Positions 10,801 to 42,521 of a stretch of DNA of 64,000 nt are shown in pieces. The notes under the pieces were generated by a model, which saw only the letters and a list, made by a program, of their open reading frames with translations, searched no databases and was not told the origin of the DNA. The first letter of the stretch is position 1. The number at the start of each line of letters is the position of its first letter. The stretch comes from Laspinema sp. D2d. GTDB lineage: Bacteria; Cyanobacteriota; Cyanobacteriia; Cyanobacteriales; Laspinemataceae. A program made the translations under genes and the position numbers. The DNA lies in the NCBI RefSeq assembly GCF_025370755.1, contig NZ_JAMXFC010000004.1, positions 145,505 to 209,504 on the forward strand, given 5' to 3'.

Positions 10801-13146
10801 CTATTCTTCAATTTTTGTGCGAATAAGCGTTAATAAATCGCGCGTTTTATAAGGTTTAGATAAATAGGTCGGGCCGCTCTTTTCCGTTGATGCGGATACG
10901 GGAAGATTGCTCATCAATCCACTAACGGCAATAATTTTAATGGCGGGATTAATTTTTTGAAGTGCTTTTAGGGTGAGTTTTCCATCCATTAATGGCATCA
11001 TCATATCCAGAATCACCACGGCAATTTCTGAGGACCGTTGACTGTAGAGGGAAATAGCCTCCATGCCATCAGCAGCCGTTAATACATTATAGCCAAATTT
11101 TTGGAGGAGGGCTTGAGCAATTTCACAGATGGCAACTTCATCATCTACGACTAAAATTAACTCCCCGGATCCGAAAGGGAGTTCGGTTGGTTCTGCAGTT
11201 AGCACTTCCGTTCCCTGCATGGCAGGCAAGTAGACAGTAAAAGCACTTCCTTTGCCAATTTGACTAGAAACGGATAAAAATCCGCCATGATTTTTAACGA
11301 TACCTCGAACCGTGGGTAACCCGAGTCCCGTGCCTTTTCCTAATCCTTTGGTCGTAAAAAAAGGTTCAAATAAGCGGTCTAAAATTTCCGGGGGAATCCC
11401 GGTTCCTGTATCGCAAATTGTGAGTTTAATATAAGAACCCAGTTGAGCCTCGGGGTCGAGGGTTAAATCGGATTTGGTGAGGGTGAAGTTTTCAGCCTGA
11501 ATCGATAAAGTTCCCCCGTTTGGCATCGCATCCCGAGCGTTGACGCACAGATTCATCAAGATTTGATGGAGGTGAGTAGGGTCGCCGGAAATCAACCAAA
11601 GTTTGGGGTTAATTGTGGTAGAAATTTGAATAGATTTGGGAAAGGTTTCTCGGGCGATCGCGACGATTTCATCAATCAGGTGTTTGATTTGAACCAGGGT
11701 TCGATTCCCATCCAACCCTTTGGCAAAAGATAGCACTTGTTTGAGCAGGTCCGCGCCGCGCAAGGTGTTAATTTCTAACATGGAAATTAAGCGCATTTGC
11801 TGGGCATTTAAGGGGAACATTTCCAACAGTTGCACCGCCCCCAAAATGGGGGTGAGAATGTTGTTCAAATCATGGGCAATGCCACTGGCTAAAGTGCCAA
11901 TACTTTCGAGGCGTTGGGCGCGCAAAAACTGGGCTTCAAGCTGTTTTTTCTCCGTAATATCTGTATTCACTGACAGGATGGAAAAGGGCCGATCGCGCTC
12001 GTCTCGGACTAGGGTCTGACGACTGGCAACGGTGATGGATTTACCCCCTTTGGTGACTTGTTCTAACTCTCCATGCCATTCGCCGGTTGTGAGGACCGTT
12101 TGCTCGATCTGGTTGAGTTCTTGGGCGCTTTTCACATCAAAAAGATGACTGCTGCTTTGGGCGATCGCTTCGCTGCGGGTCCATCCATATAATTTTTCCG
12201 CACCTTTATTCCAAAATACAATATTCTGCTGAAGGTCTTTGACCCAAATTGCATCGGTGGCAACATCTAAAAGCGCTGCCTGCTGGCGGACCTGTTCTTC
12301 AGCGCGTTTGCGCTCAGTGATATCGTATAATGCCCCAACAATTTCTTCACTTTGTTTCTCCCCTTTACAAATCAGCTTCATTTCATCCCGCACCCAGCGA
12401 TAACTCCCGTCTGTATTCTGGAACCGATACTCACTGAGGGAATGACCGATTTGGTACAACTGCTTGATACTGGAAAATAGCGCCGGTGCATCATCGGGAT
12501 GAATGCGATCGCGCCAAAATGAGGAGTCCCCTAAAATTTCTTCCGGTCGATATCCCAAATGTTCGAGAATATTCTCACTCACAAAGGTCGGGCAGTAAGG
12601 GTGGTCAGAAGGGCAGGTATAAATCACGGCTGGACTGGAGGACAACAAGTATTGAAGCTGACTTTGCGTGGCGATGAGTGCCGATTCCGTCCGTTTTAAT
12701 TCCTTAATTTGATGTTGGAGTTCCGACTCCCGTAAAACCCGTTCCGTGACATCTTCAATGGTGGCGATCGTGCCAATCACTTGAGATGCTTCCATAAGGG
12801 GAGCAATCTTAGCACTTTGTAGCATATAAGGCACGCTTTTATAGACATCGGTTGGGAGCATGGGTAACAAAAACCCATGTAACCGCTGAGATAGGAGGGT
12901 AACTTGTCCGGCTAGGGCTTGGTAAAAAAATCGATCTAATCGCCGCTGCTTTAATTCGGGATAAATTTCTAGTAAATTTCTCCCCACCACCCGATTCACA
13001 CTCAACCCACTATAGAGTTCCAGCCAACGATTCCAACTTTGGATATTCAAATCTACATCGGTCGTAAATATCCCTCGGTCAGCTAAGTCATTGACCCAAT
13101 GAAGGAGATCTTGATTAGAGTTGAGCGGATCGGTAATATTGCTCAT
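10801..13146 (-). CDS. PAS-domain hybrid sensor histidine kinase with C-terminal receiver
   Basis: There are about three PAS/PAC repeats, then a HisKA domain (HDLNNILTPILG), an HATPase_c domain (GTGLGL) and a C-terminal REC domain (LVVDDEVAICE...DMMMPLMDG). Confidence 0.9.
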   Translation of the reverse strand: MSNITDPLNSNQDLLHWVNDLADRGIFTTDVDLNIQSWNRWLELYSGLSVNRVVGRNLLEIYPELKQRRLDRFFYQALAGQVTLLSQRLHGFLLPMLPTDVYKSVPYMLQSAKIAPLMEASQVIGTIATIEDVTERVLRESELQHQIKELKRTESALIATQSQLQYLLSSSPAVIYTCPSDHPYCPTFVSENILEHLGYRPEEILGDSSFWRDRIHPDDAPALFSSIKQLYQIGHSLSEYRFQNTDGSYRWVRDEMKLICKGEKQSEEIVGALYDITERKRAEEQVRQQAALLDVATDAIWVKDLQQNIVFWNKGAEKLYGWTRSEAIAQSSSHLFDVKSAQELNQIEQTVLTTGEWHGELEQVTKGGKSITVASRQTLVRDERDRPFSILSVNTDITEKKQLEAQFLRAQRLESIGTLASGIAHDLNNILTPILGAVQLLEMFPLNAQQMRLISMLEINTLRGADLLKQVLSFAKGLDGNRTLVQIKHLIDEIVAIARETFPKSIQISTTINPKLWLISGDPTHLHQILMNLCVNARDAMPNGGTLSIQAENFTLTKSDLTLDPEAQLGSYIKLTICDTGTGIPPEILDRLFEPFFTTKGLGKGTGLGLPTVRGIVKNHGGFLSVSSQIGKGSAFTVYLPAMQGTEVLTAEPTELPFGSGELILVVDDEVAICEIAQALLQKFGYNVLTAADGMEAISLYSQRSSEIAVVILDMMMPLMDGKLTLKALQKINPAIKIIAVSGLMSNLPVSASTEKSGPTYLSKPYKTRDLLTLIRTKIEE

Positions 13147-13183
13147 TTTACTAAGCCTTTGTTGATAGCTAACTATTATTCCA

Positions 13184-13828
13184 TTATGAAGACATGGAAA
13201 TGTTAGGGGGGTCTATCTCTCCCCGGGCCCAGTTATCAATCTCTTCGAGTAATTTTTCTAAAGAGACCACACTCAATACCATGACTAAATACCCCTGAAT
13301 GGAATTTTCCTTCATCCGAAACCCAGTATAAACGACCATTGCATACCGCATTTCCGCTTTACCAATACTCAGAGAATGGAGTAACCCATCTAAGGCTTCT
13401 AAATGTAACCGAGGAACTGAAAAAGAAATTTGCATTTGTAACAAATTTCCAAAAACGCTTAGACAGGCGTTGAGTAAAATATTGCCTATTTCCGTGAGCA
13501 CTTCGGCTGCCGAGGCATCCAGGCGATCGCGATGCATATCTTGTTCTGGCGTGACCAACTCAGTCAGTTGCAAGGCTCCGTCATAGTTCAACAATAACAG
13601 GGCATTTCCCGAAACCCGTCCTGTAAAAATTTGCTGAACCGTGGCAATTTCTCCCGTAACAAAGGTCCCGAGTTTGGCGCTGAGTTCTTCGATGGGGTGA
13701 ATGGAAACCTGGGGAACCTCTAGTAACACTCGATGACCCGTGAGTTCCGAGAGCGCCGTCGCTGTGCGGGCGAAACCCATGTTCAGTAATTCGCTTAAGG
13801 CATCCTGTTGGATTTCTGTCAGCTTCAT
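13184..13828 (-). CDS. CheC-like protein (CheC/CheX/FliY family CheY-P phosphatase)
   Basis: It has two internal CheC-type repeats: LSELLNMGFARTATALSELTG and LTEIGNILLNACLSVFGNLLQ. Its start overlaps the stop of the upstream receiver gene by 4 bp (ATGA). Confidence 0.75.
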   Translation of the reverse strand: MKLTEIQQDALSELLNMGFARTATALSELTGHRVLLEVPQVSIHPIEELSAKLGTFVTGEIATVQQIFTGRVSGNALLLLNYDGALQLTELVTPEQDMHRDRLDASAAEVLTEIGNILLNACLSVFGNLLQMQISFSVPRLHLEALDGLLHSLSIGKAEMRYAMVVYTGFRMKENSIQGYLVMVLSVVSLEKLLEEIDNWARGEIDPPNISMSS

Positions 13829-14235
13829 TCTACCCCTCCCGGGATTCCTTGGAGAACCTGATTTACGGTGTCCAGAACCGCATCGGGATTATAGGGCTTA
13901 GTCACATACCCCAGTGCTCCGGCTGCCATGACGGCAGCGCGGGTCATTTCTTGAAGATCAGCCGTCGCCATGACGATGCGGGCGTGATGGTCGAAGGCGC
14001 GTAATTTTTCCAGCACTTCGGTTCCCTGCATATCTGGCATGGCGATATCCAGTAAAACCAGATCTGGTTTTTCTATATAGTAACTCTCAATGCCCGTTAA
14101 TCCATCCTTGGCCTCAATAATCAAGTGGCCTTCAGTCTGGAGGATGCGTCGCAGTATTCCCCGAGAAAGGGTAGAGTCATCAACAATCAAAATTTTTGCC
14201 ATTGCCTTGCGTCTTTGTATCGGATTGGCAGTCAA
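13825..14235 (-). CDS. CheY-like single-domain response regulator
   Basis: The protein is a receiver domain only: KILIVDDS ... LLDIAMPDMQG ... TKP. A possible alternative start lies at 14202. It is translationally coupled to the CheC-like gene. Confidence 0.9.
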   Translation of the reverse strand: MTANPIQRRKAMAKILIVDDSTLSRGILRRILQTEGHLIIEAKDGLTGIESYYIEKPDLVLLDIAMPDMQGTEVLEKLRAFDHHARIVMATADLQEMTRAAVMAAGALGYVTKPYNPDAVLDTVNQVLQGIPGGVE

Positions 14236-14363
14236 GCTCTAACCCTGAGATTGAAGGATCCAACTTTCCAGCCGGTCCGCTTCATTTCCGCCCCCATTTG
14301 TTCATGCCCTTATCTTAACTCTGAACGGGAGTGCTGCATAGGGATATCTTCTCATTACTGCTT

Positions 14364-17300
14364 TTATAGCGTCCAGGTCAATTGAGCGAGGACTTGAGCT
14401 AATTGGGCCGGTTCTACGGGTTTAGTAAGGTGTTTTTCAAAGCCTGCGAGGAGGGATTGGGCGCGGTCCTCGTCCGAGGCAAACGCAGTCAGGGCGATCG
14501 CCGGAATATGACTGTGGTTTTCAGCTTCATGCTGGCGGATTTGGTGAATTAAATGATATCCGTCTTCTCCGGGCATTCCAATATCGCTGACTAAGATATC
14601 AAATTTGAATTGGCCCAACAAGGCGATCGCCTCGGCAACGGAAGTGACTACCCGAACCCGGACCCCATAATCGGTGAGCATCGCTTCCATTAAATCCCCG
14701 GTATCGGGGTCGTCATCCACGACTAACACCTGCAACCCATCTAATGCCCACAGTTGACTCGACAATCCTTCCTCTGGAGAACAGGAAGTCTGGACGGCTT
14801 GCTCTTGCTCTTGTGGCGGTTTGGGCAGAATCGGTAACTGGACCCGCAACGTGGCCCCTTGGTCTTCACCCTCGCTCAAGGCTTGGACCTGGCCCCCGTG
14901 GAGTTCGACTAAGTGCCGGACGATGGTCAACCCTAACCCTAATCCACCATAGGCGCGAGTCGTAGAACTATCCGCTTGACGGAATCCCTCAAAAATATAG
15001 GGGAGAAAGTCGGGATGGATGCCAATTCCCGTATCCTGAACCTGGAGGGTAATATAAGAATCCATTTGGGCGATCGCTACAGAAATTTGACCTCCGGCTG
15101 GGGTAAATTTCACCGCATTGGATAACAAATTCCAAGCCACTTGTTGCAAGCGATCGCTATCCCCCGAAACCAAGGGAATCGCCGGATCAAAGTTAAAATC
15201 AATCTGAATTCCCTTAGATTCAGCCGTGGGAGTTACCGTATCCAGGGCGGCTTCAACAATAGGAATTAAATTCACCGGACGCAGTTGTAAGCGAATTTTA
15301 CCGCGAATAATCCGGGAAACATCTAAGATATCATCAATTAGAGTCACCTGTAATTTAGCATTACGCTCAATGGTTTCTAATGCTTTCGTCTTTGTCGCTT
15401 CATTCAGCTTGCGGGTGCGCAGCAACTGGGTCCAGCCCAGAATTGAATTGAGGGGGGTGCGCAGTTCATGGGAAACAATGGATAAAAACTCATCCTTGAT
15501 TTGATTGGCCTTGATTAATTCTTCTGACTGTTGCTGTTGGAAAATGAGCGCTGTTTCCAGTTCTCGCTTATGTAAAGTTAGTTCCGAGGCGAGGGCTTCT
15601 ACATCGGAGCTTTGAGAGGCCAACTCCTGCTGTAACACATCCCGCACCCGTTTAATGGCGATCGCATTGCCCACCCGCGCCCGCAATTCTTCCACGGAAA
15701 AGGGTTTCATCAGATAATCTTGCACCCCTTCCCGCAATAACTGGACCCGCAAATCATCATCATCTTTCGCCGTCAACATGATAATGGAAACATTGGCAAA
15801 ATCGGGATTACTGCGTAATAAAGACACCAGGCGATCGCCCCCAATTTCGGGCATCATCACATCACTCAAGATTAAATCCGGATGCAGGGCGAGTGCCTGT
15901 TCCCACCCTTGCTCCCCATTAAACGCCGTCGCAATTTGATAGTCCCGTCCCAGGATATCGCTGATAAAGCGATTCATTTCCCGGTTGTCTTCCACAATTA
16001 AAATCAGGGGTCGAGAGTCATTGGGAACGAGCATCGGGGGAGGTGTTTCCCCTCCCACCTTCAGTTCAGCGATCGCTGATTCGGCCAGATCCTCCCAGAT
16101 AGAAGCCTCTGAAGCCGTTTTAGTGAGGTCTGGAGAAACCGCCAAAGGCAGTTGAACCGTAAACATTGCCCCGCCTAGGGGTGCATCAGCGACGGTTATG
16201 CTTCCTTGATGAAGTTCTACAAATTCTTTAACAATTGCCAACCCCAACCCCGTCCCGCCAAAACGACGGGTGCTCCCGCCTTCAATTTGGCTAAAGCGCT
16301 CAAAGATGCTTTCACGCCGTTCCAAGGGAATCCCTGGACCACTATCTTGGATGGCGATCGTCACCGGGTTATTCTCCCCGGGCCCATCGTTCAGAGACAG
16401 GGAACAGTCAATTTTGCCTCCCGGGGGTGTGAACTTAAAGGCATTAGAGAGTAAGTTTAAAACCACCCGTTCGATTTTTGGGCGGTCCAATCGGGTTGAC
16501 AAGGATTCCGGGGCCTTGAGGGTTAATTCAATCTCCCGTTCCAGGGCTAAGGCGTCAAAGTTCGCCGCCACTTGGCGAATCAGACTCGCTAGATCCAGGG
16601 GAACGGCGGCGAGTTCCATTTTGCCCGCTTCTAGCTTAGAGATATCCAGGAGATCATTAACCTGTTTGAGGAGCATTCGGGAATTACGCTCAATTACCAG
16701 TAAGTCCCGGTGTTGTTCCCCCGAGAGTTGGGTATCGGCGAGCAACTTCTGAGTTGGACCTAAAATCAAAGCCAGGGGGGTTCGCAATTCATGGCTAACG
16801 TTGGCAAAAAATTGGCTTTTGAGTTCATCCAGTTGCTTCAGTTGACCATAAAGGGCTTGCAGTTCTTGATTTGCCCGTTCCAGATTCAAGCGGCGCTCTT
16901 CAGAAACCTGAGCCGAGTCCAATAATTTCAAGGCTTTGGGGATTAAGGGGGGTAAAGAAAGTGCGGTAGTGACTGAGGCGATCGCCGTGAGTAATTTAAC
17001 ATTTCCCGATAACCAGTAAGTCGGATTCCACAAGGTCCAGACTGATAGAAAATGGGTCATGCCACAAGCGATGATAAACGCACCAAAGGCTAAAAATATC
17101 CAATCAAAGGGGATATTTTTCCGCGCTTTATAAACGAAATAAGCAAGGCTGCTCGAAATGGCAACATAGGCGACGCCAATCAGGGTGTCGGATGTCACAT
17201 GAAGCCAAACTAATGAGGGCTTCCAGAGATAACAATGACCGTGGGGGATAAACCCGTCTTTGGCTAATAAATTTCCCAGGATGTCGGGCCAGAGCAGCAG

Positions 17301-17444
17301 GGTGAAGAGGCAGAGCAACCCCAATAATCCGCTAATCAAGAGGATATTGGGGGGCGGGTTACTATCGGTTTGAGTAGAGTTTTTTAACCCTTGTCCCTCA
17401 GCATCTGAACTGAGAGTGGCTAGATTAAAATTAAATGGTTTCAT
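14364..17444 (-). CDS. ethylene-binding-domain (EBD) homolog fused to a dual histidine kinase (EBD-HisKA/HATPase-REC-HisKA/HATPase-REC)
   Basis: The N-terminal TM region (SDTLIGVAYVAISSSLAYFVYKARKNIPFDWIFLAFGAFIIACGMTHFLSVWT...KLLTAIASVTTAL) aligns with the plant ETR1 EBD. This includes the Cys-G-x-T-His copper-ligand motif (LCGATHL in ETR1). Two complete HisKA (VSHELRTPL) plus HATPase modules follow, each succeeded by a REC domain. Confidence 0.85.
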   Translation of the reverse strand: MKPFNFNLATLSSDAEGQGLKNSTQTDSNPPPNILLISGLLGLLCLFTLLLWPDILGNLLAKDGFIPHGHCYLWKPSLVWLHVTSDTLIGVAYVAISSSLAYFVYKARKNIPFDWIFLAFGAFIIACGMTHFLSVWTLWNPTYWLSGNVKLLTAIASVTTALSLPPLIPKALKLLDSAQVSEERRLNLERANQELQALYGQLKQLDELKSQFFANVSHELRTPLALILGPTQKLLADTQLSGEQHRDLLVIERNSRMLLKQVNDLLDISKLEAGKMELAAVPLDLASLIRQVAANFDALALEREIELTLKAPESLSTRLDRPKIERVVLNLLSNAFKFTPPGGKIDCSLSLNDGPGENNPVTIAIQDSGPGIPLERRESIFERFSQIEGGSTRRFGGTGLGLAIVKEFVELHQGSITVADAPLGGAMFTVQLPLAVSPDLTKTASEASIWEDLAESAIAELKVGGETPPPMLVPNDSRPLILIVEDNREMNRFISDILGRDYQIATAFNGEQGWEQALALHPDLILSDVMMPEIGGDRLVSLLRSNPDFANVSIIMLTAKDDDDLRVQLLREGVQDYLMKPFSVEELRARVGNAIAIKRVRDVLQQELASQSSDVEALASELTLHKRELETALIFQQQQSEELIKANQIKDEFLSIVSHELRTPLNSILGWTQLLRTRKLNEATKTKALETIERNAKLQVTLIDDILDVSRIIRGKIRLQLRPVNLIPIVEAALDTVTPTAESKGIQIDFNFDPAIPLVSGDSDRLQQVAWNLLSNAVKFTPAGGQISVAIAQMDSYITLQVQDTGIGIHPDFLPYIFEGFRQADSSTTRAYGGLGLGLTIVRHLVELHGGQVQALSEGEDQGATLRVQLPILPKPPQEQEQAVQTSCSPEEGLSSQLWALDGLQVLVVDDDPDTGDLMEAMLTDYGVRVRVVTSVAEAIALLGQFKFDILVSDIGMPGEDGYHLIHQIRQHEAENHSHIPAIALTAFASDEDRAQSLLAGFEKHLTKPVEPAQLAQVLAQLTWTL

Positions 17445-17716
17445 AACGGTTTAATTCATTAAAATCATGAATTTTTCAGGGTCAGTCGGGGAATTGAGCT
17501 GGGTTGAATTGATGGAGTCGGATAAAAAATAAAGCTCAAGAGTCTTCAGAACCCAAAGGGGTTAGATAGGTTTGAATTCTGAGAAAATCGCGAGAGTCTG
17601 ACGGTGAAAAAATCGCCCGACGAGAAATTCTACTGCACTAATTTCAATTTTAGCGCTGAAACGGTCAGAACTTCAGGGAGCAAGAGAGGCCGGGAGCAGA
17701 AAGGGGAAATTTGGGA

Positions 17717-20700
17717 TTAGATTAAGCCCGTTTGTTGAGCAATTTCCGCGAGGGCCGTTGCTAATTTCAAGGGTTCAACAGGTTTAGCAACATGAAGATG
17801 AAATCCGGCTAACAGGGCTTGTTGACGATCCTCTTCCCGAGCAAAAGCAGTCAAGGCGATCGCGGGAATGGGCTTGCCGTATCCTGCCTCACGCTGGCGA
17901 ATTTTGCGGATCAAAACATAGCCGTCTTCTTCTGGCATTCCAATATCAGAAATTAAGATATCATGACGCGATCGCTCGGTGACGGCTAAGGCTTCAGCAG
18001 CGGATACAACCACCGTCGTCTGTACCCCATATTCCGCTAAGACTTGAGCAATTAACTCTCCCGTATCGCGATCGTCATCGACAACCAGTACCTGTAAACC
18101 TGCGATGTTTAAGGCATACTTTGCCATTGTTTTCTCGTCCAACATTACAGTATCGGGTTCGGGGAGAGGACTCTGGGAGACCCGGATGGGGAGGGCTACG
18201 GTAAAGGTGGTGCCCGTTCCTTCTCCCTGACTGAAGGCTTGGACGGTCCCCCCATGCAGTTCTACGAGGTAGCGCACAATGGTTAAGCCTAGACCGAGAC
18301 CCCCGTGGGTGCGGGTGGAGGAACTGTTGGCTTGGCGGAAGCCTTCAAAGACGTGAGGGAGGAAGTCGGGGCTGATGCCAATCCCCGTATCCTGGACCCG
18401 AAACTCGATGCGATCGCCTACCCGGTCGATTCCTACGGTCACCTGTCCCCCATGAGGGGTAAACTTGACCGCATTGGAGAGTAGATTCCAAACAATTTGA
18501 TGGAGGCGGCTACTATCCCCTAAAATGATCTGTCCGCTTGCATTGAACTGGGTCAGCAGTTGAATCGACTTCGCTTCCGCTGCGGGAGTCAGGGTGGAAA
18601 TCGCCTGTTCCACCAAAGTTTCCAGATACAAAGGAACTCGATTTAGGCGAATTTTCCCGCGAACAATTCGCGAGACATCGAGGATATCGTCAATCAGGGT
18701 CACCTGGTGCTTGGCATTGCGTTCGATAGTTTCTAGGGCTTTTTGTCGCGTCTCTTCTTTGAGGGTGCGAGCACGGAGTAATTGCGCCCAGCCGAGAATC
18801 GAGTTGAGGGGAGTCCGCAATTCATGAGAGACGATCGCCAAAAATTCATCCTTGAGTCGGTTGGCTTTTTCGGCGCGATCGCGGGCTTGTTGCTGGGCCT
18901 CATAAAGGTTGGCCCGGTCAATGGCAAGGGCTACGCGATCGGCCACCAGTTGCAGCAAATAGACATCTTCGGCCATAAATTCTCGCGGCGACTCCGTACT
19001 CACATGGAGCACCCCAAGCACTTGGTCGTCTAAGATCATCGGTGCGCCCATCATGGACTCAATTTTTTTATGTCGGAACAGAGGACTAATCACTTGGGTA
19101 TGAGCATCGCGCTCAATCCGCATCGGTTGCCGAGTCTGGGCAATTTTTCCCGCAAACCCCAGCCCCAGGGGAATCGGGATAGAGGCGGAAATCGGTTGCT
19201 CTAAATCTAAGCCTTTAGTCGCCGTCACAATCAAGGCAGTTTGCTCAGGATTCATCAGTAAAATCACCACCGCATCCACTTCTAACACCACGGTGACGCG
19301 ATCGAGCAACTCTTGGAGTAAATCATGGAGAGACAACGGGGCGATCGCCACATCCACAATCGCTTGTAACCGATGTACCATTGTCGTTGCCCGTTCAGAC
19401 AAAATTCGCGCCGCTTTCTCCCGTTCCAACAACTCCATGCGCTCTTCTTGCGCTTCCTTACGTTCGTGAATGTCTGTATTCGTCCCAAACCACTTGACAA
19501 TCTCTCCCTGATGATCGCGCATGGGTACCGCTAATCCCAGATGCCAGCGGTAAGCGCCATCAGAACCCCGACGCATTCTGGCTTCAATTTCATAAGGGTG
19601 TCCGTGTTCCACACAAGCCATCCACTTATCGCGACATTCGCACAAGTCGTCAGGATGCACGATGGGCTCCCATCCCCAGCCTAGCAGTTCGGCCTCACTC
19701 AAGCCGGTGTACTCACTCCAGCGGTGACTCAGGTAATCCAGGGTCCCATCGGGTAGGGCGGTCCAGACCATTTGGGGAATGGCCTCGCTCAGGAATCGAT
19801 AATACTGCTCACTGGCTTCAGCTTGAGTTCGGGCTGATTGTTCCAGTTGTAACAGTTCAATCCGTTCTGCCTCCGCTTCTTTGAGGGGAGTAATATCGAT
19901 CGCCGATCCAATGAACCCGACTAAATTGCCCTCGGGATTCCACCGGGGCACCCCAGTTTCTAGCATCCACCGATAGGCTCCATCCGATCGTTTTAGGCGG
20001 TATTCCTGAGTAAAAGGTTGGCCGACTTTTACCGCTTGTTGGTAACTCAAAACGCACTGGAGTTGATCCTCGTAATGGATCCGGTCCCGAGGGTTGAGCT
20101 CCGGGTCTGCTTCCAATAAGACGCCGATGAAGTTTAAGCCCCATTTATTTAAAAAAGTCCACTGTCCCTGACAATTGGCTACCCACAACAGCACCGGGGC
20201 GGTATCTGCCATATCCCGAAACCGTTTTTCACTGTCGCGCAGGGCTTCTTCCGTCTGTTTGCGTTGGGTAATATCGTAGCGGATGGCTAAATATTGAAAG
20301 GGTTTTCCCTGACTATCTAAAAAAGGAACAATGACTGTATCGACCCAATAATAAGTACCATCTTTGGCCCGATTCTTAATTTCCCCGCGCCATACTTCTC
20401 CCCGGGCAATAGTCGCCCATAGATTGATAAAAAATTCTTTAGGATGATAACCGGAATTAATTAAGCGATGGTCTTGTCCAATTAATTCAGACTGGGAATA
20501 TTTAGAAATTTGAATAAATTTTTCGTTGACATATTGAATCGTTCCTTTCGCATCAGTCGTAGCAACGATCGCTGATTTATCTAAAGCGAATTGGAAATCC
20601 GATAATTCTTTTAAGGTTTGTTGAAGTTCCGCCTCTGCCCGTTTGCGATCGCTGATGTCCCGTACCGATGCCATCCAAACTGAGCGACCCAAATAGACCG

Positions 20701-21826
20701 TCGGTTGAATAACTGCTTCTAGGACTACCGTTGTCCCATCTTTTTTAATCCCGACTGCTTCTGATGCTCCCTCCTGTGTCCATTGCCAGTCGGCCAACAT
20801 TAACCCAACGGTCTCTTCCGTTAAAATATAGCCTAAAGGCCGTCCAATCAGTTCATCGGCATCATATCCAAAGATTTTTTCCAAGGATTGATTCACCGCA
20901 ATCAGGCGATCGCTCTCATAAAAGAAAATCCCTTCCACTGTCGATTCAGCGAGGGTTTTAAACCGTTGTTCATTAGCTCGGAGTGTTCCCTCTGCCTGCT
21001 TGCTTTCGGTGATATCTCGGCTAATTTTAGAGAATCCGTAAAGATTCCCCTCAGTATCATATAAAGGGGTAATCACTTCATGCACCCAAAAGCGGGTTCC
21101 GTCCTTTCGCAATCGTTCTGCTTCTTGTTCCAATCGTCCCTGTTCTACCGCCTGTTTCAAATCTCGTTCCGGTTGACTTTCGGCTACCGCTTCAGGGGGA
21201 TAAAAGCAGGAAAAATGTTGGCCGATAATCTCCTCGGCTGCATACCCTTTGAGGCGTTTTGCTCCCGGATTCCAACTATTGACCCGTCCATCCGGTGCCA
21301 GCATATACAGTCCATAATCTTGAATGCCATCTACCAATAACTGAAAGTTTTGTTCACTTTGCAGAAACGAGTCAAGATGTAATTGAGCCGTTTTGGAACT
21401 TTGGGCATACCGTTCTTTCGTTTGTTGCAATGAGCCGATCGCGATCGCAATTGCCGATCCTTCAATTAAAAATAAAATTAACCGAAATATTTGGCCCCGA
21501 CTGTTGTCTACAACCCCATAAAGGGGAGATGAAAAGAAGTAACCGCTGGCTAATCCGGCCCCTAGGGTCGCCATCAGTCCCCCTATCTTCCCCCCAAACC
21601 AAGCACTGACCATAATCGCCGCAAAATATACCAAAAATGGGCTTTCGGGTAAAATTAAGGGTGCGATGGTATTTTTAATCCCCGTGGCAAGGCTGACACT
21701 CAGGAGGGCAATTGCCACAGGATGCAGGAGTTGTCGCCATCGGGTTAAAGGCTGATTTCTGGGATCGCACAACTGAGGCAGTTTGCTAAATAGACGCAGG
21801 AGGAGCGAGGGGCTGATTTTCATCAT
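17717..21826 (-). CDS. multi-sensor hybrid histidine kinase (DUF4118-like TM domain, multiple PAS/PAC, GAF, HisKA, HATPase, REC)
   Basis: This is a 1369-aa ORF. It has an N-terminal KdpD-like membrane domain and about five PAS repeats with TGVPRW/DIT-type PAC motifs. A GAF domain, HisKA (VSHELRTPLNSILGWAQLL), HATPase (GGLGLGL) and a C-terminal REC follow. Confidence 0.9.
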   Translation of the reverse strand: MMKISPSLLLRLFSKLPQLCDPRNQPLTRWRQLLHPVAIALLSVSLATGIKNTIAPLILPESPFLVYFAAIMVSAWFGGKIGGLMATLGAGLASGYFFSSPLYGVVDNSRGQIFRLILFLIEGSAIAIAIGSLQQTKERYAQSSKTAQLHLDSFLQSEQNFQLLVDGIQDYGLYMLAPDGRVNSWNPGAKRLKGYAAEEIIGQHFSCFYPPEAVAESQPERDLKQAVEQGRLEQEAERLRKDGTRFWVHEVITPLYDTEGNLYGFSKISRDITESKQAEGTLRANEQRFKTLAESTVEGIFFYESDRLIAVNQSLEKIFGYDADELIGRPLGYILTEETVGLMLADWQWTQEGASEAVGIKKDGTTVVLEAVIQPTVYLGRSVWMASVRDISDRKRAEAELQQTLKELSDFQFALDKSAIVATTDAKGTIQYVNEKFIQISKYSQSELIGQDHRLINSGYHPKEFFINLWATIARGEVWRGEIKNRAKDGTYYWVDTVIVPFLDSQGKPFQYLAIRYDITQRKQTEEALRDSEKRFRDMADTAPVLLWVANCQGQWTFLNKWGLNFIGVLLEADPELNPRDRIHYEDQLQCVLSYQQAVKVGQPFTQEYRLKRSDGAYRWMLETGVPRWNPEGNLVGFIGSAIDITPLKEAEAERIELLQLEQSARTQAEASEQYYRFLSEAIPQMVWTALPDGTLDYLSHRWSEYTGLSEAELLGWGWEPIVHPDDLCECRDKWMACVEHGHPYEIEARMRRGSDGAYRWHLGLAVPMRDHQGEIVKWFGTNTDIHERKEAQEERMELLEREKAARILSERATTMVHRLQAIVDVAIAPLSLHDLLQELLDRVTVVLEVDAVVILLMNPEQTALIVTATKGLDLEQPISASIPIPLGLGFAGKIAQTRQPMRIERDAHTQVISPLFRHKKIESMMGAPMILDDQVLGVLHVSTESPREFMAEDVYLLQLVADRVALAIDRANLYEAQQQARDRAEKANRLKDEFLAIVSHELRTPLNSILGWAQLLRARTLKEETRQKALETIERNAKHQVTLIDDILDVSRIVRGKIRLNRVPLYLETLVEQAISTLTPAAEAKSIQLLTQFNASGQIILGDSSRLHQIVWNLLSNAVKFTPHGGQVTVGIDRVGDRIEFRVQDTGIGISPDFLPHVFEGFRQANSSSTRTHGGLGLGLTIVRYLVELHGGTVQAFSQGEGTGTTFTVALPIRVSQSPLPEPDTVMLDEKTMAKYALNIAGLQVLVVDDDRDTGELIAQVLAEYGVQTTVVVSAAEALAVTERSRHDILISDIGMPEEDGYVLIRKIRQREAGYGKPIPAIALTAFAREEDRQQALLAGFHLHVAKPVEPLKLATALAEIAQQTGLI

Positions 21827-27224: not shown

Positions 27225-29267
27225 TTAATTCCAATTCCCAATCATGGTAAACGCCGACCAAAAATAAGGATGAGATAGGTTCATCGTTTTTTCTATCCCC
27301 AATTCCGGGGGTAAAGGGACAGTTGTACCATTCGAGAGAACTAACATTCCATTTTCTATGCGCACCTCTCCCCTTAACAGTGCCAGTTGAGTTTGCCGTA
27401 AAGCTTCGGCTTTAAGGGGCTTTTCTCCCAGTTGGGAATAAAATTCACTCATTAATCCTAAAGTTCCCGCATCGCTGACATACCAGAAACTCGCTAACGA
27501 TGCTTTCGCCCCAGAAAGTACCGCTAACCCGGCAAATCCCAACTCAGCTTGGGTATCTCCTACTGCCGTCCGACAAGCACTTAAGGTTAATAGTTCAATG
27601 GGAGGATTCTGCGAGGTATTCCACCCCAGTTCCGTGGCTAAGTCTCGAATTTGGTTCAGCCCGACCCGACTATCGTAAAACGTGATAAAAGAGTTATCCA
27701 AATTTCCCCCTTGAAATTCGGCGTGGGTTGCCAAATGGATAATTCCATATTGTTTTTCCAGGTTAATTTTTCGGAAATTAGCGGCAGTAAACTCTTCATT
27801 CAGGAAGACATTTCCCTTCCACGGATCGCTGACAATATTTTGTAACTCAGTCGGCACTCCAGGCAAAGGATTAAGATCTTCAAAAATAGCCGAACCCATC
27901 CCTAAAACTTCTCGGTTGCGGATATCGGAATAGGTGACATCGGTTAAGCCAAAACTGGGGACTAAAGCAACGGCATATTTTTCCACTAAAAACTGTTCCC
28001 CATCATGTAATGCCCCCAGGGGAAGGGTTCTCAACCCAGAATCCATCGAAAAAACTAAGGTTTCAATCCCATTGGCTTCTAGTTGTGCTTCCATTGGAGC
28101 AATCAGGGACTGATAGAGTTGTTGGGAACTGGGCAAGTAACTCCGAGTGTTGATCTTTCGGGAATTAGTCAGTTCCGATCGCAAGTTCTGCACCTGTTCA
28201 AAAAGCTGTGTCTGAGAGACATTGGGCACGGTTTCGCGAACGGCTATATCTGTTGTCCTCTCAATCAATCCTTGGGCTAAATCCGTGGAAGCCACTAAGT
28301 CAGAACTGCCCCCCGACACTCGAAAATTGTGCGGGAAAATCATCACCAGTTCTAATTGTTCCGCTAACGCAGAGACATAAATAAATGCACTCTTGTTACC
28401 CGTCGCTTGCCACAAATCATACAAAGTTTGGGCAATATCATCGGGAGTCGCGGTTTCCCCAAATAACTGCACTTCTAAATAATTGCCAAACTCCATTGCC
28501 TGATATTCTTCCAACATTTGAACCGCCACCCCAACATCAGCAACAGCTAACTGACTTTCATAACCCGGGCGATCGACTTCTTGATCAGAAAGTGGACTCA
28601 TGGGCTGTGCCTCTCCCGTTGTGCTGGGGGCATCTTCAAGAATCTGACCCTGTATAGGATTGGTACTTTCGGTTGTAGGGTCCGGTTCGGGATTATTCTC
28701 ACTCACCGGAGGCGGAATTTCCTCCCCACTGGGTATCTCTGGATTCTCGGGGATGACAATCGGGGCACTAGGTTCAGGCGAATCAGTATTAATTGGTTCA
28801 AGGGTTTGAATGGGAATCGGTGTCAGCACTTCCCCTGGGCTGTCAACAGGGATGACAGGGGTATCCCCAGGTGGGATGTCTGCGGGAGTTTCCGTAGGAG
28901 TTTCCGTAGGAGTCTCTGTGGGAGTGTTTGTAGGAGTCTCTGTGGGAGTGTCTGTAGGAGTCTCTGTGGGAGTTTCCGTAGGAGTCTCTGTGGGAGTGTC
29001 TGTAGGAGTAGGTAAAGGAGTGATAACTCCTGTGGGTATGATCGGTGGTGGTTCATCGGGTACCGGATCTACGGGTACTGGATCTACGGGTACTGGATCT
29101 ACGGGTACTGGATCTACGGGTACTGGATCTACGGGTACTGGATCTATGGGTACGGTGGGTCCCGTGACATCCGACTGATTTTGCGTCTGGGTGATGGCAG
29201 GAGCAGGAGCGATCGCCACCAATACCACAGGCAGAACCCATTTCATGCCTAACTTCAATAGTTTCAT
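27225..29267 (-). CDS. secreted CHAT-domain (caspase-like) protein with N-terminal Pro/Thr-rich tandem repeats
   Basis: A signal peptide is followed by (PVD)n and (TPTE)n low-complexity repeats. The C-terminal CHAT domain carries the His (IIHLATHAEF) and Cys (LSACRTAVGD) catalytic dyad. Confidence 0.85.
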   Translation of the reverse strand: MKLLKLGMKWVLPVVLVAIAPAPAITQTQNQSDVTGPTVPIDPVPVDPVPVDPVPVDPVPVDPVPVDPVPDEPPPIIPTGVITPLPTPTDTPTETPTETPTETPTDTPTETPTNTPTETPTETPTETPADIPPGDTPVIPVDSPGEVLTPIPIQTLEPINTDSPEPSAPIVIPENPEIPSGEEIPPPVSENNPEPDPTTESTNPIQGQILEDAPSTTGEAQPMSPLSDQEVDRPGYESQLAVADVGVAVQMLEEYQAMEFGNYLEVQLFGETATPDDIAQTLYDLWQATGNKSAFIYVSALAEQLELVMIFPHNFRVSGGSSDLVASTDLAQGLIERTTDIAVRETVPNVSQTQLFEQVQNLRSELTNSRKINTRSYLPSSQQLYQSLIAPMEAQLEANGIETLVFSMDSGLRTLPLGALHDGEQFLVEKYAVALVPSFGLTDVTYSDIRNREVLGMGSAIFEDLNPLPGVPTELQNIVSDPWKGNVFLNEEFTAANFRKINLEKQYGIIHLATHAEFQGGNLDNSFITFYDSRVGLNQIRDLATELGWNTSQNPPIELLTLSACRTAVGDTQAELGFAGLAVLSGAKASLASFWYVSDAGTLGLMSEFYSQLGEKPLKAEALRQTQLALLRGEVRIENGMLVLSNGTTVPLPPELGIEKTMNLSHPYFWSAFTMIGNWN
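28870..29150. repeat. in-frame tandem nucleotide repeats (15-bp and ~30-bp units) encoding PVDPV and TPTETP repeats
   Basis: The 15-bp unit ggtactggatctacg is repeated about 7 times. The 30-bp unit gtaggagtctctgtgggagtgtctgtagga is repeated about 4 times. Confidence 0.85.
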
Positions 29268-40572: not shown

Positions 40573-42366
40573 TTAGTCCAAGCGCCTATCTTCTAGCATA
40601 CCCCGGAATTTGTGTTTGCGGGCGTGGGTTTGTAGTAAGTCTTGCCGATAGGTTTTCCAAATATCCCACTGGTCTTTTTGAATGTAAGCCGCCCGGACTT
40701 TTTTCAACCAGGCGATCGCCTGATTATAGTATTCGGATTTTTTGCGATCTAAAATTGCTTCTGCAAAGGGTTTCGCTGTTTCAATTACCCAGTCTGGACG
40801 TTCAGACATCGCCGCATCCATCACTTGATGGACTAAATCCATGTGATATGAACCCAACCCATTGACGGAGGCGATCGCCTCATCAATTAAGCCTTCATTT
40901 AGGAAAATCTCTACCTTAACTTCAGTTTTTCCCCAAGTTTTATTCTGTCTCAGAGTATTTAATAAATCCGGCTGAAGTTTAGACCAATTTTCTGCACTTA
41001 AGGCTTTAATCCTGAAATAATCTTTAGAATGAGGGTTATCGTAAAAAGCGGATTGTCTGGCCTCTAATTCTACTTCAGGATTTCCCAATTCTTCAGCTAA
41101 TTCAGCAGTCCAACTGGCGAGTTGATATTGGCAATCTCCCGGTAATTTTAACCCCATTTTTCCAATTTCTAGGGCTTTACTCACTTCCCCATTACTGCGT
41201 AAGGTTTCACCCAGGGAGAACGCTTCCTCCATTGTTTTCATCTGGGTCCGGGCGGCTTCCATTGCTTCGGCAGTTCGTCCTAAACTGCCCAACATGGTCA
41301 GATATTGTTTCATGCGCCCTTTCGATTTTGCCAAGTTCAAATATTCCTGATATCGCTCTTGCCTATCGAGAATTTTTAAGCGAATTAGGACCAAATCCCG
41401 GGAAGAATAGGGGTGAGAGTCTTCTGCAATTTCGGGTTCGGTTAGGGTTCCTTTGAGGGCTTGTACCAAATGTGGATCATTCCATCCTTGGGTGAGGGAT
41501 TCTAAGCTGAGGGTAAATTCGGTACTCCACTCCTCTTGGAGTATTTCTAATCGCGATCGCCACTCTTTCACTTCACTGGAACTCAGGGAGTCGCTGAGAA
41601 TCGCTTCGGCGATCGCTTCATCCAGGGCGAGGATAATATCATCGGAATCAATTCCATACTGTTCCACCCGGTCCCAATCTGCTGCACAGGCTGAAGCAAT
41701 GGCTTCTAGCACGATTAACGCATTATAAGTTTCCCCAATTTCTATTAACCCTTGAACATTATCAATTAAATCTAATAACTCCTCAGTTACCGGGTCCTCT
41801 TCCCCATCTAAATTTTCAAAATAACGCATCCCTTCATATAAAATATCCCGCGCCTGCTGCCGAAATGGAGCCGGATTAATGGGGGAGGGTCGCTGAGTAT
41901 TGGCTGGTTGGGTTGGGCTTTTTATTGCAGTTTTTAAAGTGAGGTAGCAGTCAATTTCATCAATAAGTTCTGGATTTTGTTGAACTAATTCTTGCACTAG
42001 CTCTTGGATTTGTTTCAGGTTGAGATGATCAAGCAATTGCTCTAAAGTCGGACGCTCTTGAATAGTTTCGGGTTGCCGCATTACCACAAATAAGGTGGCT
42101 ACAATATGTTCACACCATTCAGCCTTTTGATAGCCACAAGAACAGGTCGCTGAAGTCAAACTGCCCTCATCAAATCCGACCCGAACCCGATAGGGTTGAA
42201 CGGCATGACCTATCACTTCAGCATTGAGTAAATTGCCGCGCCGAGTCACTGCGGTTACATTGCCCGATTCATAATCAGACTGGCCTTTGCTCAAGAATTC
42301 AGGGGCGGATTTTGTGTGAATGAGGCTGTCGGTCAGGTAGGGAGTTTTAAACATAGAGCAATCCAA
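40573..42366 (-). CDS. SWIM zinc-finger domain protein
   Basis: An N-terminal CxC-x(n)-CxH SWIM motif (CSCGYQKAEWCEHIVATLF) heads the protein. The remaining ~480 aa are predicted alpha-helical with no recognisable catalytic domain. Confidence 0.75.
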   Translation of the reverse strand: MDCSMFKTPYLTDSLIHTKSAPEFLSKGQSDYESGNVTAVTRRGNLLNAEVIGHAVQPYRVRVGFDEGSLTSATCSCGYQKAEWCEHIVATLFVVMRQPETIQERPTLEQLLDHLNLKQIQELVQELVQQNPELIDEIDCYLTLKTAIKSPTQPANTQRPSPINPAPFRQQARDILYEGMRYFENLDGEEDPVTEELLDLIDNVQGLIEIGETYNALIVLEAIASACAADWDRVEQYGIDSDDIILALDEAIAEAILSDSLSSSEVKEWRSRLEILQEEWSTEFTLSLESLTQGWNDPHLVQALKGTLTEPEIAEDSHPYSSRDLVLIRLKILDRQERYQEYLNLAKSKGRMKQYLTMLGSLGRTAEAMEAARTQMKTMEEAFSLGETLRSNGEVSKALEIGKMGLKLPGDCQYQLASWTAELAEELGNPEVELEARQSAFYDNPHSKDYFRIKALSAENWSKLQPDLLNTLRQNKTWGKTEVKVEIFLNEGLIDEAIASVNGLGSYHMDLVHQVMDAAMSERPDWVIETAKPFAEAILDRKKSEYYNQAIAWLKKVRAAYIQKDQWDIWKTYRQDLLQTHARKHKFRGMLEDRRLD

Positions 42367-42521
42367 TCTGATGGGTCCAGAGCACTGGACGGGTTGTTAA
42401 AGAATCGGGCAAGCTTATCCTCATCCGCTCAGAGAACAGTAATCGCCAGTTTCTCTAGTTCCTATCATATCCAGAGACGGTCTGACTCGCAAGACTCATT
42501 CACAGATATTAACACCTGCAA

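Follow-up and report, generated by a model that had tools for sequence, protein, structure and literature searches.

The 64,000-nucleotide window analysed here (Laspinema sp. D2d, contig NZ_JAMXFC010000004.1, positions 145,505 to 209,504) carries on its reverse strand a gene for a 1026-residue sensor kinase, in which an ethylene-binding domain (EBD) related to that of the plant receptor ETR1 is followed by two histidine kinases (HK1 and HK2) and two receiver domains (REC1 and REC2), in the order EBD-HK1-REC1-HK2-REC2 (Table 1). The gene is one uninterrupted frame with an ATG start, and Pfam recognizes in its product ETR1_N together with HisKA, HATPase_c and Response_reg, each of these three in two copies. 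An NCBI entry from Laspinema sp., named only "ATP-binding protein" (P0121), matches the protein at 100% identity, and orthologues of equal length with 81–88% identity occur in Oscillatoria acuminata PCC 6304, in other Laspinema species and in Phormidium pseudopriestleyi. The same-length orthologues and the identical database protein show that the gene is real and is not an artefact of frame fusion. Its product is a membrane sensor whose EBD input feeds straight into two serially arranged histidine kinases, and it is an ordinary member of a common but uncharacterized subfamily. A 659-residue fragment that is 90% identical to the protein bears the NCBI label "Vampirovibrionales bacterium" (P0133); its identity to Laspinema and Oscillatoria proteins suggests that it probably comes from a misbinned cyanobacterial contig.

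An unusual length, and the resemblance of the second kinase module to that of a neighbouring gene, are all that can be said for viewing the tandem layout as an assembly or annotation artefact, or as a recent functionless fusion of two genes. That view has next to no likelihood and is already refuted by the conservation data. The layout is uninterrupted in all 120 best relatives, which come from many independent assemblies and include the complete genome of O. acuminata PCC 6304, and the catalytic residues of both modules are invariant. The similarity to the neighbour, at only 60%, is not that of a recent duplicate.

An earlier reading, made from the sequence alone, had placed an EBD homologue at about residues 70–170. 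Profile comparison bears out the assignment and sets the limits at residues 78–174, where PF25487 (ETR1_N) is matched over profile positions 2–97 of 97 with 126.7 bits against a cutoff of 27 (E = 4.3e-37). BLASTP aligns residues 85–200 with residues 24–134 of Arabidopsis ETR1 at 35% identity (E = 2e-18), and the two EBDs are 35% identical across 119 columns. The ETR1 query is 98% and 95% identical to database proteins named ethylene receptor 1. MHYT, an unrelated family to which the domain might instead have belonged, has no Pfam match in the protein; the only other membrane-family match, ECF_trnsprt, reaches 18.7 bits and lies under its cutoff of 30.7. By these comparisons the domain is a true homologue of the ETR1-type EBD, and the homology is solid. 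The EBD family as a whole comprises 8,476 representatives at E ≤ 0.001, and sequence searches extended to E values of up to 10 found no solved structure of any EBD homologue.

The residues of the domain were mapped onto ETR1 in an alignment of 345 sequences, consisting of 344 database EBDs and AtETR1. The segment C127-G-M-T-H131 falls on Cys65-Gly-Ala-Thr-His69 of ETR1 here and in the BLASTP alignment, so that the Cys and His proposed earlier as copper ligands do occupy the ligand positions. The other correspondences are D86 to Asp25, Y93 to Tyr32, I96 to Ile35, F120 to Phe58, F123 to Phe61, I124 to Ile62, T130 to Thr68, K150 to Lys91, T153/A154 to Thr94/Ala95 and A161 to Ala102. In ETR1, Cu(I) is bound by Cys65 and His69, and Asp25 orients His69 and bridges to Lys91 of helix 3 (PMC10266040); ethylene binding requires Tyr32, Ile35, Pro36 and Ile62 (PMC6586836; PMC8879215). 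The list of seven essential ETR1 residues used below follows citing papers (PMC8879215, PMC6586836, PMC3212723). The Cu(I)-ligand positions C127/H131 and the helix 1–helix 3 pair D86/K150 are invariant in relatives of the protein, and C127, H131, D86, Y93, I96, I124 and K150 are invariant or nearly so among the 344 aligned EBDs. The pocket-lining Tyr32, Ile35 and Ile62 are thus kept as Y93, I96 and I124.

With ETR1 and the other plant receptors (EBD-GAF-HK, with or without REC), the protein has in common the residues just listed, a Cu(I)/ethylene-binding domain of three helices, an N-terminal Cys and, further downstream, a kinase of the HisKA type. It differs in having Ser at the positions of Pro36 and Glu38, in lacking a GAF domain, and in running from helix 3 straight into the DHp domain of the first kinase. 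It also adds an N-terminal membrane helix, a single-Cys loop with the conserved motif PHGHCYLW, and a further kinase with a further receiver.

The additional hydrophobic helix (TM0) and the three EBD helices make four membrane helices. AlphaFold places the EBD helices at residues 76–107, 114–139 and from 147 onward, and K106, R108 and K109, loop residues on the cytoplasmic side, are consistent with the positive-inside rule as read from the sequence. A hydrophobic segment precedes the HGxC motif in 14 of the 15 relatives in which that motif was found. In the outer loop before helix 1, P67 and H68 of PHGHCYLW are invariant, and G69, C71, Y72, L73 and W74 are conserved in at least 90% of sequences; H82, close to the motif, is likewise invariant. 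The motif lies outside the Pfam domain boundary and is present in bacterial EBDs with either proline or serine at the position of Pro36 (Pro-type and Ser-type, respectively), though not in plants. Its conserved Cys, C71, is the single N-terminal one, versus the two (C4 and C6) of the disulfide-linked dimer in plant receptors, a feature already noted for cyanobacterial proteins (PMC6682694). The motif and H82 could be an additional site for metal handling or dimerization.

The way in which the EBD is joined to the first kinase distinguishes the Ser-type subfamily. Pfam matches no GAF or PAS domain in the protein, and the EBD ends only 29 residues before HisKA. In the AlphaFold model, built from a 64-sequence alignment (mean predicted local distance difference test score, 76; predicted template modelling score, pTM, 0.44), one continuous helix spans residues 147–235 and carries membrane helix 3 through H218. 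K150 and H218 are exactly 68 residues apart in all of the 98 compact relatives. In Pro-type EBDs, helix 3 is usually followed by a P-[ST]-P break, the spacers before any kinase are longer and variable, and no sampled Pro-type EBD has an H-box at +68. A simpler generalization, that only non-Pro EBDs adjoin a kinase, does not hold in full, for the layout EBD-HK-REC also occurs in some Pro-type proteins, with variable linkers of 74 to 120 residues or more that follow a P-S-P break. The model accordingly depicts a rigid and direct coupling of EBD helix 3 to the first kinase in the Ser-type subfamily.

SynEtr1 (Slr1212/UirS/PixA) of Synechocystis, GeiEtr1/2 of Geitlerinema and AzoEtr1 of Azospirillum are, like the present protein, bacterial EBD histidine kinases. 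Ethylene binding has been shown for SynEtr1 and AzoEtr1, which act through response regulators to control phototaxis or the formation of biofilms (PMC6682694; PMC11819568). These receptors have all seven essential residues, including the proline, and place PAS and/or GAF (cyanobacteriochrome) domains before a single kinase. The published layouts are EBD-PAS/GAF-HK for SynEtr1 (PMC6682694), in agreement with the earlier description of its EBD as coupled to a phytochrome-like domain, and EBD-PAS-HK for AzoEtr1 (PMC11819568). In contrast, the Laspinema protein is Ser-type, is directly coupled and has two kinases, and the PAS and bilin-binding GAF photosensor domains of the SynEtr1/UirS type have no Pfam match in it; SynEtr1 was compared by its published description.

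Both kinase/receiver modules proved complete, as the sequence-only reading had claimed. The H-box SHELRTPL occurs in each kinase (H218 and H659), together with N, G1, F and G2 boxes, and each receiver has an acidic pair, a phospho-Asp, a Thr and a Lys (E485/D486/D528/T558/K580 in REC1; D910/D911/D954/T986/K1008 in REC2), so that both phospho-His and both phospho-Asp residues are kept. Invariant in 64 sequences with identities down to 42% are H218, N334, D367, G369, G371, G397, G399 and G401 of HK1, E485, D486, D528 and K580 of REC1, and H659, N776, D804, G806, G808, G834, G836 and G838 of HK2. All five active-site residues of REC2 are kept in each of the 17 compact relatives that possess this domain. 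AlphaFold models the linker between REC1 and the second DHp domain (DHp2) as helices at residues 584–610 and 615–677. D528 and H659 are 131 residues apart in 86 relatives, with 124 residues in 8 others and 138 in a further 2 (together 96 of 98 compact relatives), and these values differ by steps of one heptad. The distance from H218 to D528 is flexible, at 308–325 residues across the family.

The cytoplasmic domain order has a precedent in LvrA of Leptospira, a PAS-DHp-CA-REC-DHp-CA protein that autophosphorylates on His218 and transfers the phosphate preferentially to its own Asp524 (PMC5863495). The phosphorylation sites lie at nearly matching positions, with H218, D528 and H659 in the Laspinema protein against H218, D524 and H616 in LvrA. 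In LvrB, the prototype of Rec-controlled kinases, inactive and active states have been seen by cryo-EM; phosphorylation of REC makes the linker helix form a coiled coil and releases the CA domain, and linker lengths in the class favour multiples of seven (PMC13269768). A helical coiled-coil linker between REC and DHp is shared with LvrB, as modelled here, and the entry 8vc9 is among the top structural matches. LvrA differs in being cytoplasmic, with a PAS sensor and no terminal REC, whereas the present sensor is a membrane EBD. The spacing from the receiver Asp to the second His is also longer, at 131 residues versus 92 in LvrA and 105 in LvrB.

The identity of the domains, the conservation of their residues, the helical connectors, the limits on spacing and the gene neighbourhood are observed, and from them we infer a ligand, a sign of regulation, a phosphate flow and an output. 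We think it rather probable that the protein senses ethylene or a comparable small ligand in a Cu(I)-dependent way and acts through a two-tier cascade from HK1 to REC1 to HK2. Cu(I) would be held by C127 and H131, with D86 orienting the His and bridging to K150 of helix 3. When ethylene or a comparable small ligand, unsaturated or gaseous, is bound, helix 3 would shift, and the rigid continuation of that helix, of fixed length, into HK1 would alter autophosphorylation of H218. By analogy with ETR1 and SynEtr1 the change would most probably be a decrease. HK1 would set the phosphorylation of its own REC1 at D528, as in LvrA (H218 to D524), and phospho-REC1 would form the input to HK2 via a coiled coil in heptad register, freeing the catalytic domain by the LvrB mechanism. 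HK2 would then phosphorylate H659 with fresh ATP, so that the second tier would amplify or gate the signal rather than relay the same phosphate, and phosphate from HK2 would pass to REC2 (D954) and/or to a free regulator. In the Laspinema-type lineage the likeliest output would be an adjacent CheY-like receiver with a CheC-like phosphatase, suggestive of control over gliding motility, phototaxis or biofilm formation. In both Synechocystis and Geitlerinema ethylene changes phototaxis, in Synechocystis it also changes biofilm formation, and receptor-level amplification has been proposed for cyanobacterial responses to ethylene below the receptor dissociation constant (Kd) (PMC6682694). It is possible that an ATP-driven second tier could amplify the signal and so be linked to such sub-Kd responses.

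Phosphate may flow through REC1 in another way. REC1 might be mainly a phosphate sink, or an entry point for other kinases such as the multi-PAS/GAF kinase encoded upstream, with HK2 integrating several inputs or the two kinases largely independent of each other. HK2-REC2 and the output module of that upstream neighbour share about 60% identity, and the pairing recurs in an orthologue of 62% identity, so that cross-talk is conceivable. LvrA has a second target besides its own receiver, the Rec-controlled kinase LvrB, which makes its pathway a branched one (PMC5863495), and relatives of about 1400 residues, with PAS and GAF domains between REC1 and HK2, indicate that HK2 can take extra inputs. 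We nonetheless consider such a role for REC1 unlikely. REC1 is the sole receiver in 82 relatives of about 870 residues, and the three relatives whose genomic context was examined (one of about 870 residues, one of 858 and one longer) are orphans that leave HK1 with no other obvious partner. Transfer in LvrA prefers its own Asp (PMC5863495). The heptad-quantized linker from REC1 to DHp2 also speaks for the cascade, and it indicates mechanical control of HK2 by REC1, whichever kinase phosphorylates REC1.

Several observations must be set against a copper-dependent, two-tier ethylene sensor. The pTM of the AlphaFold model is just 0.44, and the geometry between domains is therefore not established. 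The best NCBIfam model for the protein, LvrA (NF047465), gives 630.5 bits against a cutoff of 1200, so that the protein is not a member of that family and the analogy with LvrA is one of architecture, not orthology. The CheY/CheC neighbourhood is kept in the closest lineage only, and more distant relatives are orphan genes. Pfam found no HPt domain in the protein or among open reading frames (ORFs) of at least 150 residues in the window, and NCBIfam models of HPt-type hybrid kinases (BarA/ArcB/TorS) all score below their cutoffs. BarA, ArcB, TorS and BvgS share with the protein a HisKA and HATPase pair followed by a receiver in one polypeptide, and a pathway of several steps, but they use HPt as the second His carrier. 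An internal multi-step pathway, as proposed from the sequence alone, is plausible, and LvrA supplies an experimental precedent for it. Since no HPt was detected and the second His belongs to a complete ATP-driven kinase, the term kinase cascade, with the second kinase under Rec control, suits the pathway better than His-Asp-His-Asp phosphorelay.

The identity of the ligand is brought into question by a single position. Ser97 occupies the place of Pro36 of ETR1, the residue mutated in tomato Never-ripe and Arabidopsis etr2-1; the P36L mutant of ETR1 keeps less than 5% of ethylene binding (PMC3212723). Pro36 is counted among the essential residues of ETR1 (PMC6586836), and the receptors shown to bind ethylene retain all seven (PMC6682694; PMC11819568). 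Ser fills the column in every one of the 119 dual-kinase relatives, and Pro in each of the 106 plant sequences; among the 150 nearest EBD representatives at 50% identity, 104 have Ser and 28 have Pro. It may be, then, that the Ser-type domain retains its Cu(I) site without being a receptor of high affinity for ethylene, and that the same cascade conveys another signal. This could be some other small ligand, ethylene at much higher levels, or the copper or redox state of the membrane. The consistent replacement of the Never-ripe proline in relatives and the loss of binding in P36L favour such a change, and a Pro-type EBD paralogue in Laspinema palackyanum fits a division of labour. A single substitution in the pocket can have such an effect: the natural D25N variant of ETR1 is still a functional receptor with about 100-fold lower affinity (PMC10266040; PMC11971883).

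We regard an altered ligand as possible but rather doubtful, and ethylene binding by the Ser-type domain as plausible from its residues. The protein keeps D86, Y93, I96, F120, F123, I124, C127, T130, H131, K150, T153, A154 and A161, that is, every other residue tied to Cu or ethylene binding or to signal transmission, and Ser is a far milder replacement than Leu, the one that has been tested. On a crude neighbour-joining tree of 195 EBDs, with the Pro36 column masked, the Ser/non-Ser state changes at least 15 times, compared with a mean of 59.5 and a minimum of 51 changes when labels are shuffled. The Ser state is strongly clustered but has no single origin, and the idea that Ser-type EBDs form one clean clade was rejected. 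Such repeated switches weakly suggest that Pro and Ser may be interchangeable without functional loss.

Pro- and Ser-type receptors coexist in one genus, Laspinema. The paralogue in Laspinema palackyanum D2a (L039, on NZ_JAMXFF010000037.1) has an EBD that is 61% identical and is fused to more than 1100 further residues; no kinase was detected within the stretch examined.

The arrangement had been thought rare, a view that the counts contradict. The EBD-HK-REC-HK core is found in all 120 best full-length relatives, of which 82 have no terminal REC (about 870 residues), 37 have one and one is a fragment; those with a terminal REC include the forms of about 1400 residues in which PAS and GAF domains are inserted between REC1 and HK2. 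Dual kinases account for 23 of the 150 nearest EBD representatives at 50% identity and for 14 of 80 loci from species-representative genomes, where they make up 14 of 22 Ser-type genes and none of 57 Pro-type genes. These architecture counts come from the full-length search, since a search with the N-terminal region alone returned only proteins of at most 357 residues and was uninformative on architecture. The layout, also known from LvrA, is common in filamentous cyanobacteria and is not confined to cyanobacteria. Ser-type EBD dual kinases occur in metagenome-assembled genomes of Chloroflexota (Ktedonobacteraceae, Chloroheliaceae) and of Acidobacteriota (Blastocatellia, Pyrinomonadaceae), at loci L017, L021, L036 and L061. 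No paper linking an EBD to tandem or Rec-controlled kinases was found in the literature searched.

The sensor-HK-REC-HK layout (LvrA) and bacterial EBD kinases (SynEtr1, AzoEtr1) were thus already known; what is new in this large subfamily is the Ser at the Never-ripe position, the direct rigid coupling and the LvrA-like second kinase. The bacterial ethylene receptors that have been tested are few, namely SynEtr1, AzoEtr1 and, indirectly, GeiEtr1/2, and all are Pro-type with PAS or GAF spacers. A more ambitious proposal is that Ser-type EBDs, marked by Ser at the Never-ripe proline, by the lack of a break after helix 3 and by the fixed 68-residue rigid link, constitute a functionally distinct receptor class with an affinity or specificity of its own, a two-tier amplifier that could explain sub-Kd cyanobacterial responses to ethylene, and a widespread bacterial gas-sensing module. 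We put this forward as a long shot. If it were true, ligand affinity or specificity would differ from that of the Pro-type receptors coexisting in the same genus, and the occurrences in Chloroflexota and Acidobacteriota would make the class widespread. A single rigid helix leading from the gas-binding helices to a kinase is an attractive minimal system for studying transmission of the ethylene signal, and the Rec-controlled second kinase could amplify the signal or work as a logic gate. Should the domain bind ethylene, it would offer a simple bacterial model of receptor mechanics; should it fail to do so, it would show which residue tunes the choice of ligand. Either outcome would be relevant to those who study ethylene receptors and two-component systems.

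Table 1. The EBD dual-kinase gene, its domains and connecting segments, and the other genes of the signalling cluster (window coordinates).
Feature	Position	Strand	Basis
Whole gene, 1026-residue EBD-HK1-REC1-HK2-REC2 sensor kinase	14364..17444	-	ORF and Pfam domains
Extra N-terminal hydrophobic helix TM0 (residues 33-52)	17289..17348	-	Kyte-Doolittle peak; AlphaFold helix 33-51
P-H-G-H-C-Y-L-W motif (residues 67-74), outer loop before helix 1	17223..17246	-	Conservation
Ethylene-binding-domain homologue (ETR1_N, residues 78-174)	16923..17213	-	Pfam E=4.3e-37; ETR1 residue map; AlphaFold helices
Helical connector (residues 175-208), membrane helix 3 to DHp1	16821..16922	-	AlphaFold; spacing
Kinase 1: HisKA 209-274 (H218) and HATPase_c 320-435	16140..16820	-	Pfam; motifs
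Receiver 1, residues 479-597 (E485, D486, D528, T558, K580)	15654..16010	-	Pfam; motifs
Signalling helix (residues 598-640), REC1 alpha-5 to DHp2	15525..15653	-	AlphaFold; spacing
Kinase 2: HisKA 641-712 (H659) and HATPase_c 755-873	14826..15524	-	Pfam; motifs
Receiver 2, residues 904-1021 (D910, D911, D954, T986, K1008)	14382..14735	-	Pfam; motifs
Upstream DUF4118, multi-PAS, GAF, HK, REC hybrid kinase	17717..21826	-	Pfam
Downstream single-domain CheY-like receiver, candidate output partner	13825..14235	-	Pfam REC
CheC/CheX-like putative CheY-P phosphatase, start overlapping the stop of the REC gene	13184..13828	-	Pfam CheC
PAS-PAS-HK-REC hybrid kinase, last gene of cluster	10801..13146	-	Pfam

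The gene lies within a cluster of five signalling genes on the same strand (10801..21826), flanked by metabolic genes. For the single-domain receiver the best NCBIfam model is CheY, at 95 bits and under its cutoff, and its neighbour matches the CheC model over its full length at 83 bits, also under cutoff. The entire cluster, including the CheY-like, CheC-like and PAS-PAS-HK-REC genes, is kept in O. acuminata; in the 62% orthologue the upstream kinase alone is retained. By analogy with SynEtr1 and GeiEtr, the CheY/CheC pair suggests that control of motility or phototaxis is the most likely output in the Laspinema-type lineage. The output module of the upstream kinase (DHp-CA-REC) is 60% identical to residues 636–1022 of the sensor (14364..15539), with near-identical H-box regions, and both kinases may act on one downstream partner. 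In all comparisons within and between genomes the paralogous output modules show about 59–63% identity; this constant identity of about 60% led us to reject the notion that HK2-REC2 is a recent copy of the neighbour's module. No copper-handling or ethylene-forming genes were found among window ORFs of at least 150 residues, and promoter and terminator scans of the cluster did not outperform those of shuffled sequence. Between the upstream kinase and the sensor gene, the gap (17445..17716) measures 272 bp here versus about 1270 bp in O. acuminata PCC 6304, where an ORF of 30 residues is called inside it (L001, 6731..8000).

Two other loci in the window may be recorded. The first encodes an 879-residue protein with a TPS (two-partner secretion) domain (42522..45161, reverse strand), downstream of which, within 39236..45161, lie three ORFs of 160, 164 and 597 residues that have no Pfam match. 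The second is an ORF of 882 residues (30677..33325, forward strand) that encodes a bacterial homologue of the eukaryote-type Major Vault Protein, with Pfam matches to Vault repeats (E = 1.9e-66), the MVP shoulder (E = 2e-55), Vault_2, Vault_3 and Vault_4. It adjoins a 384-residue ORF with no Pfam match and a gene for a CHAT-domain protein (27225..29267).

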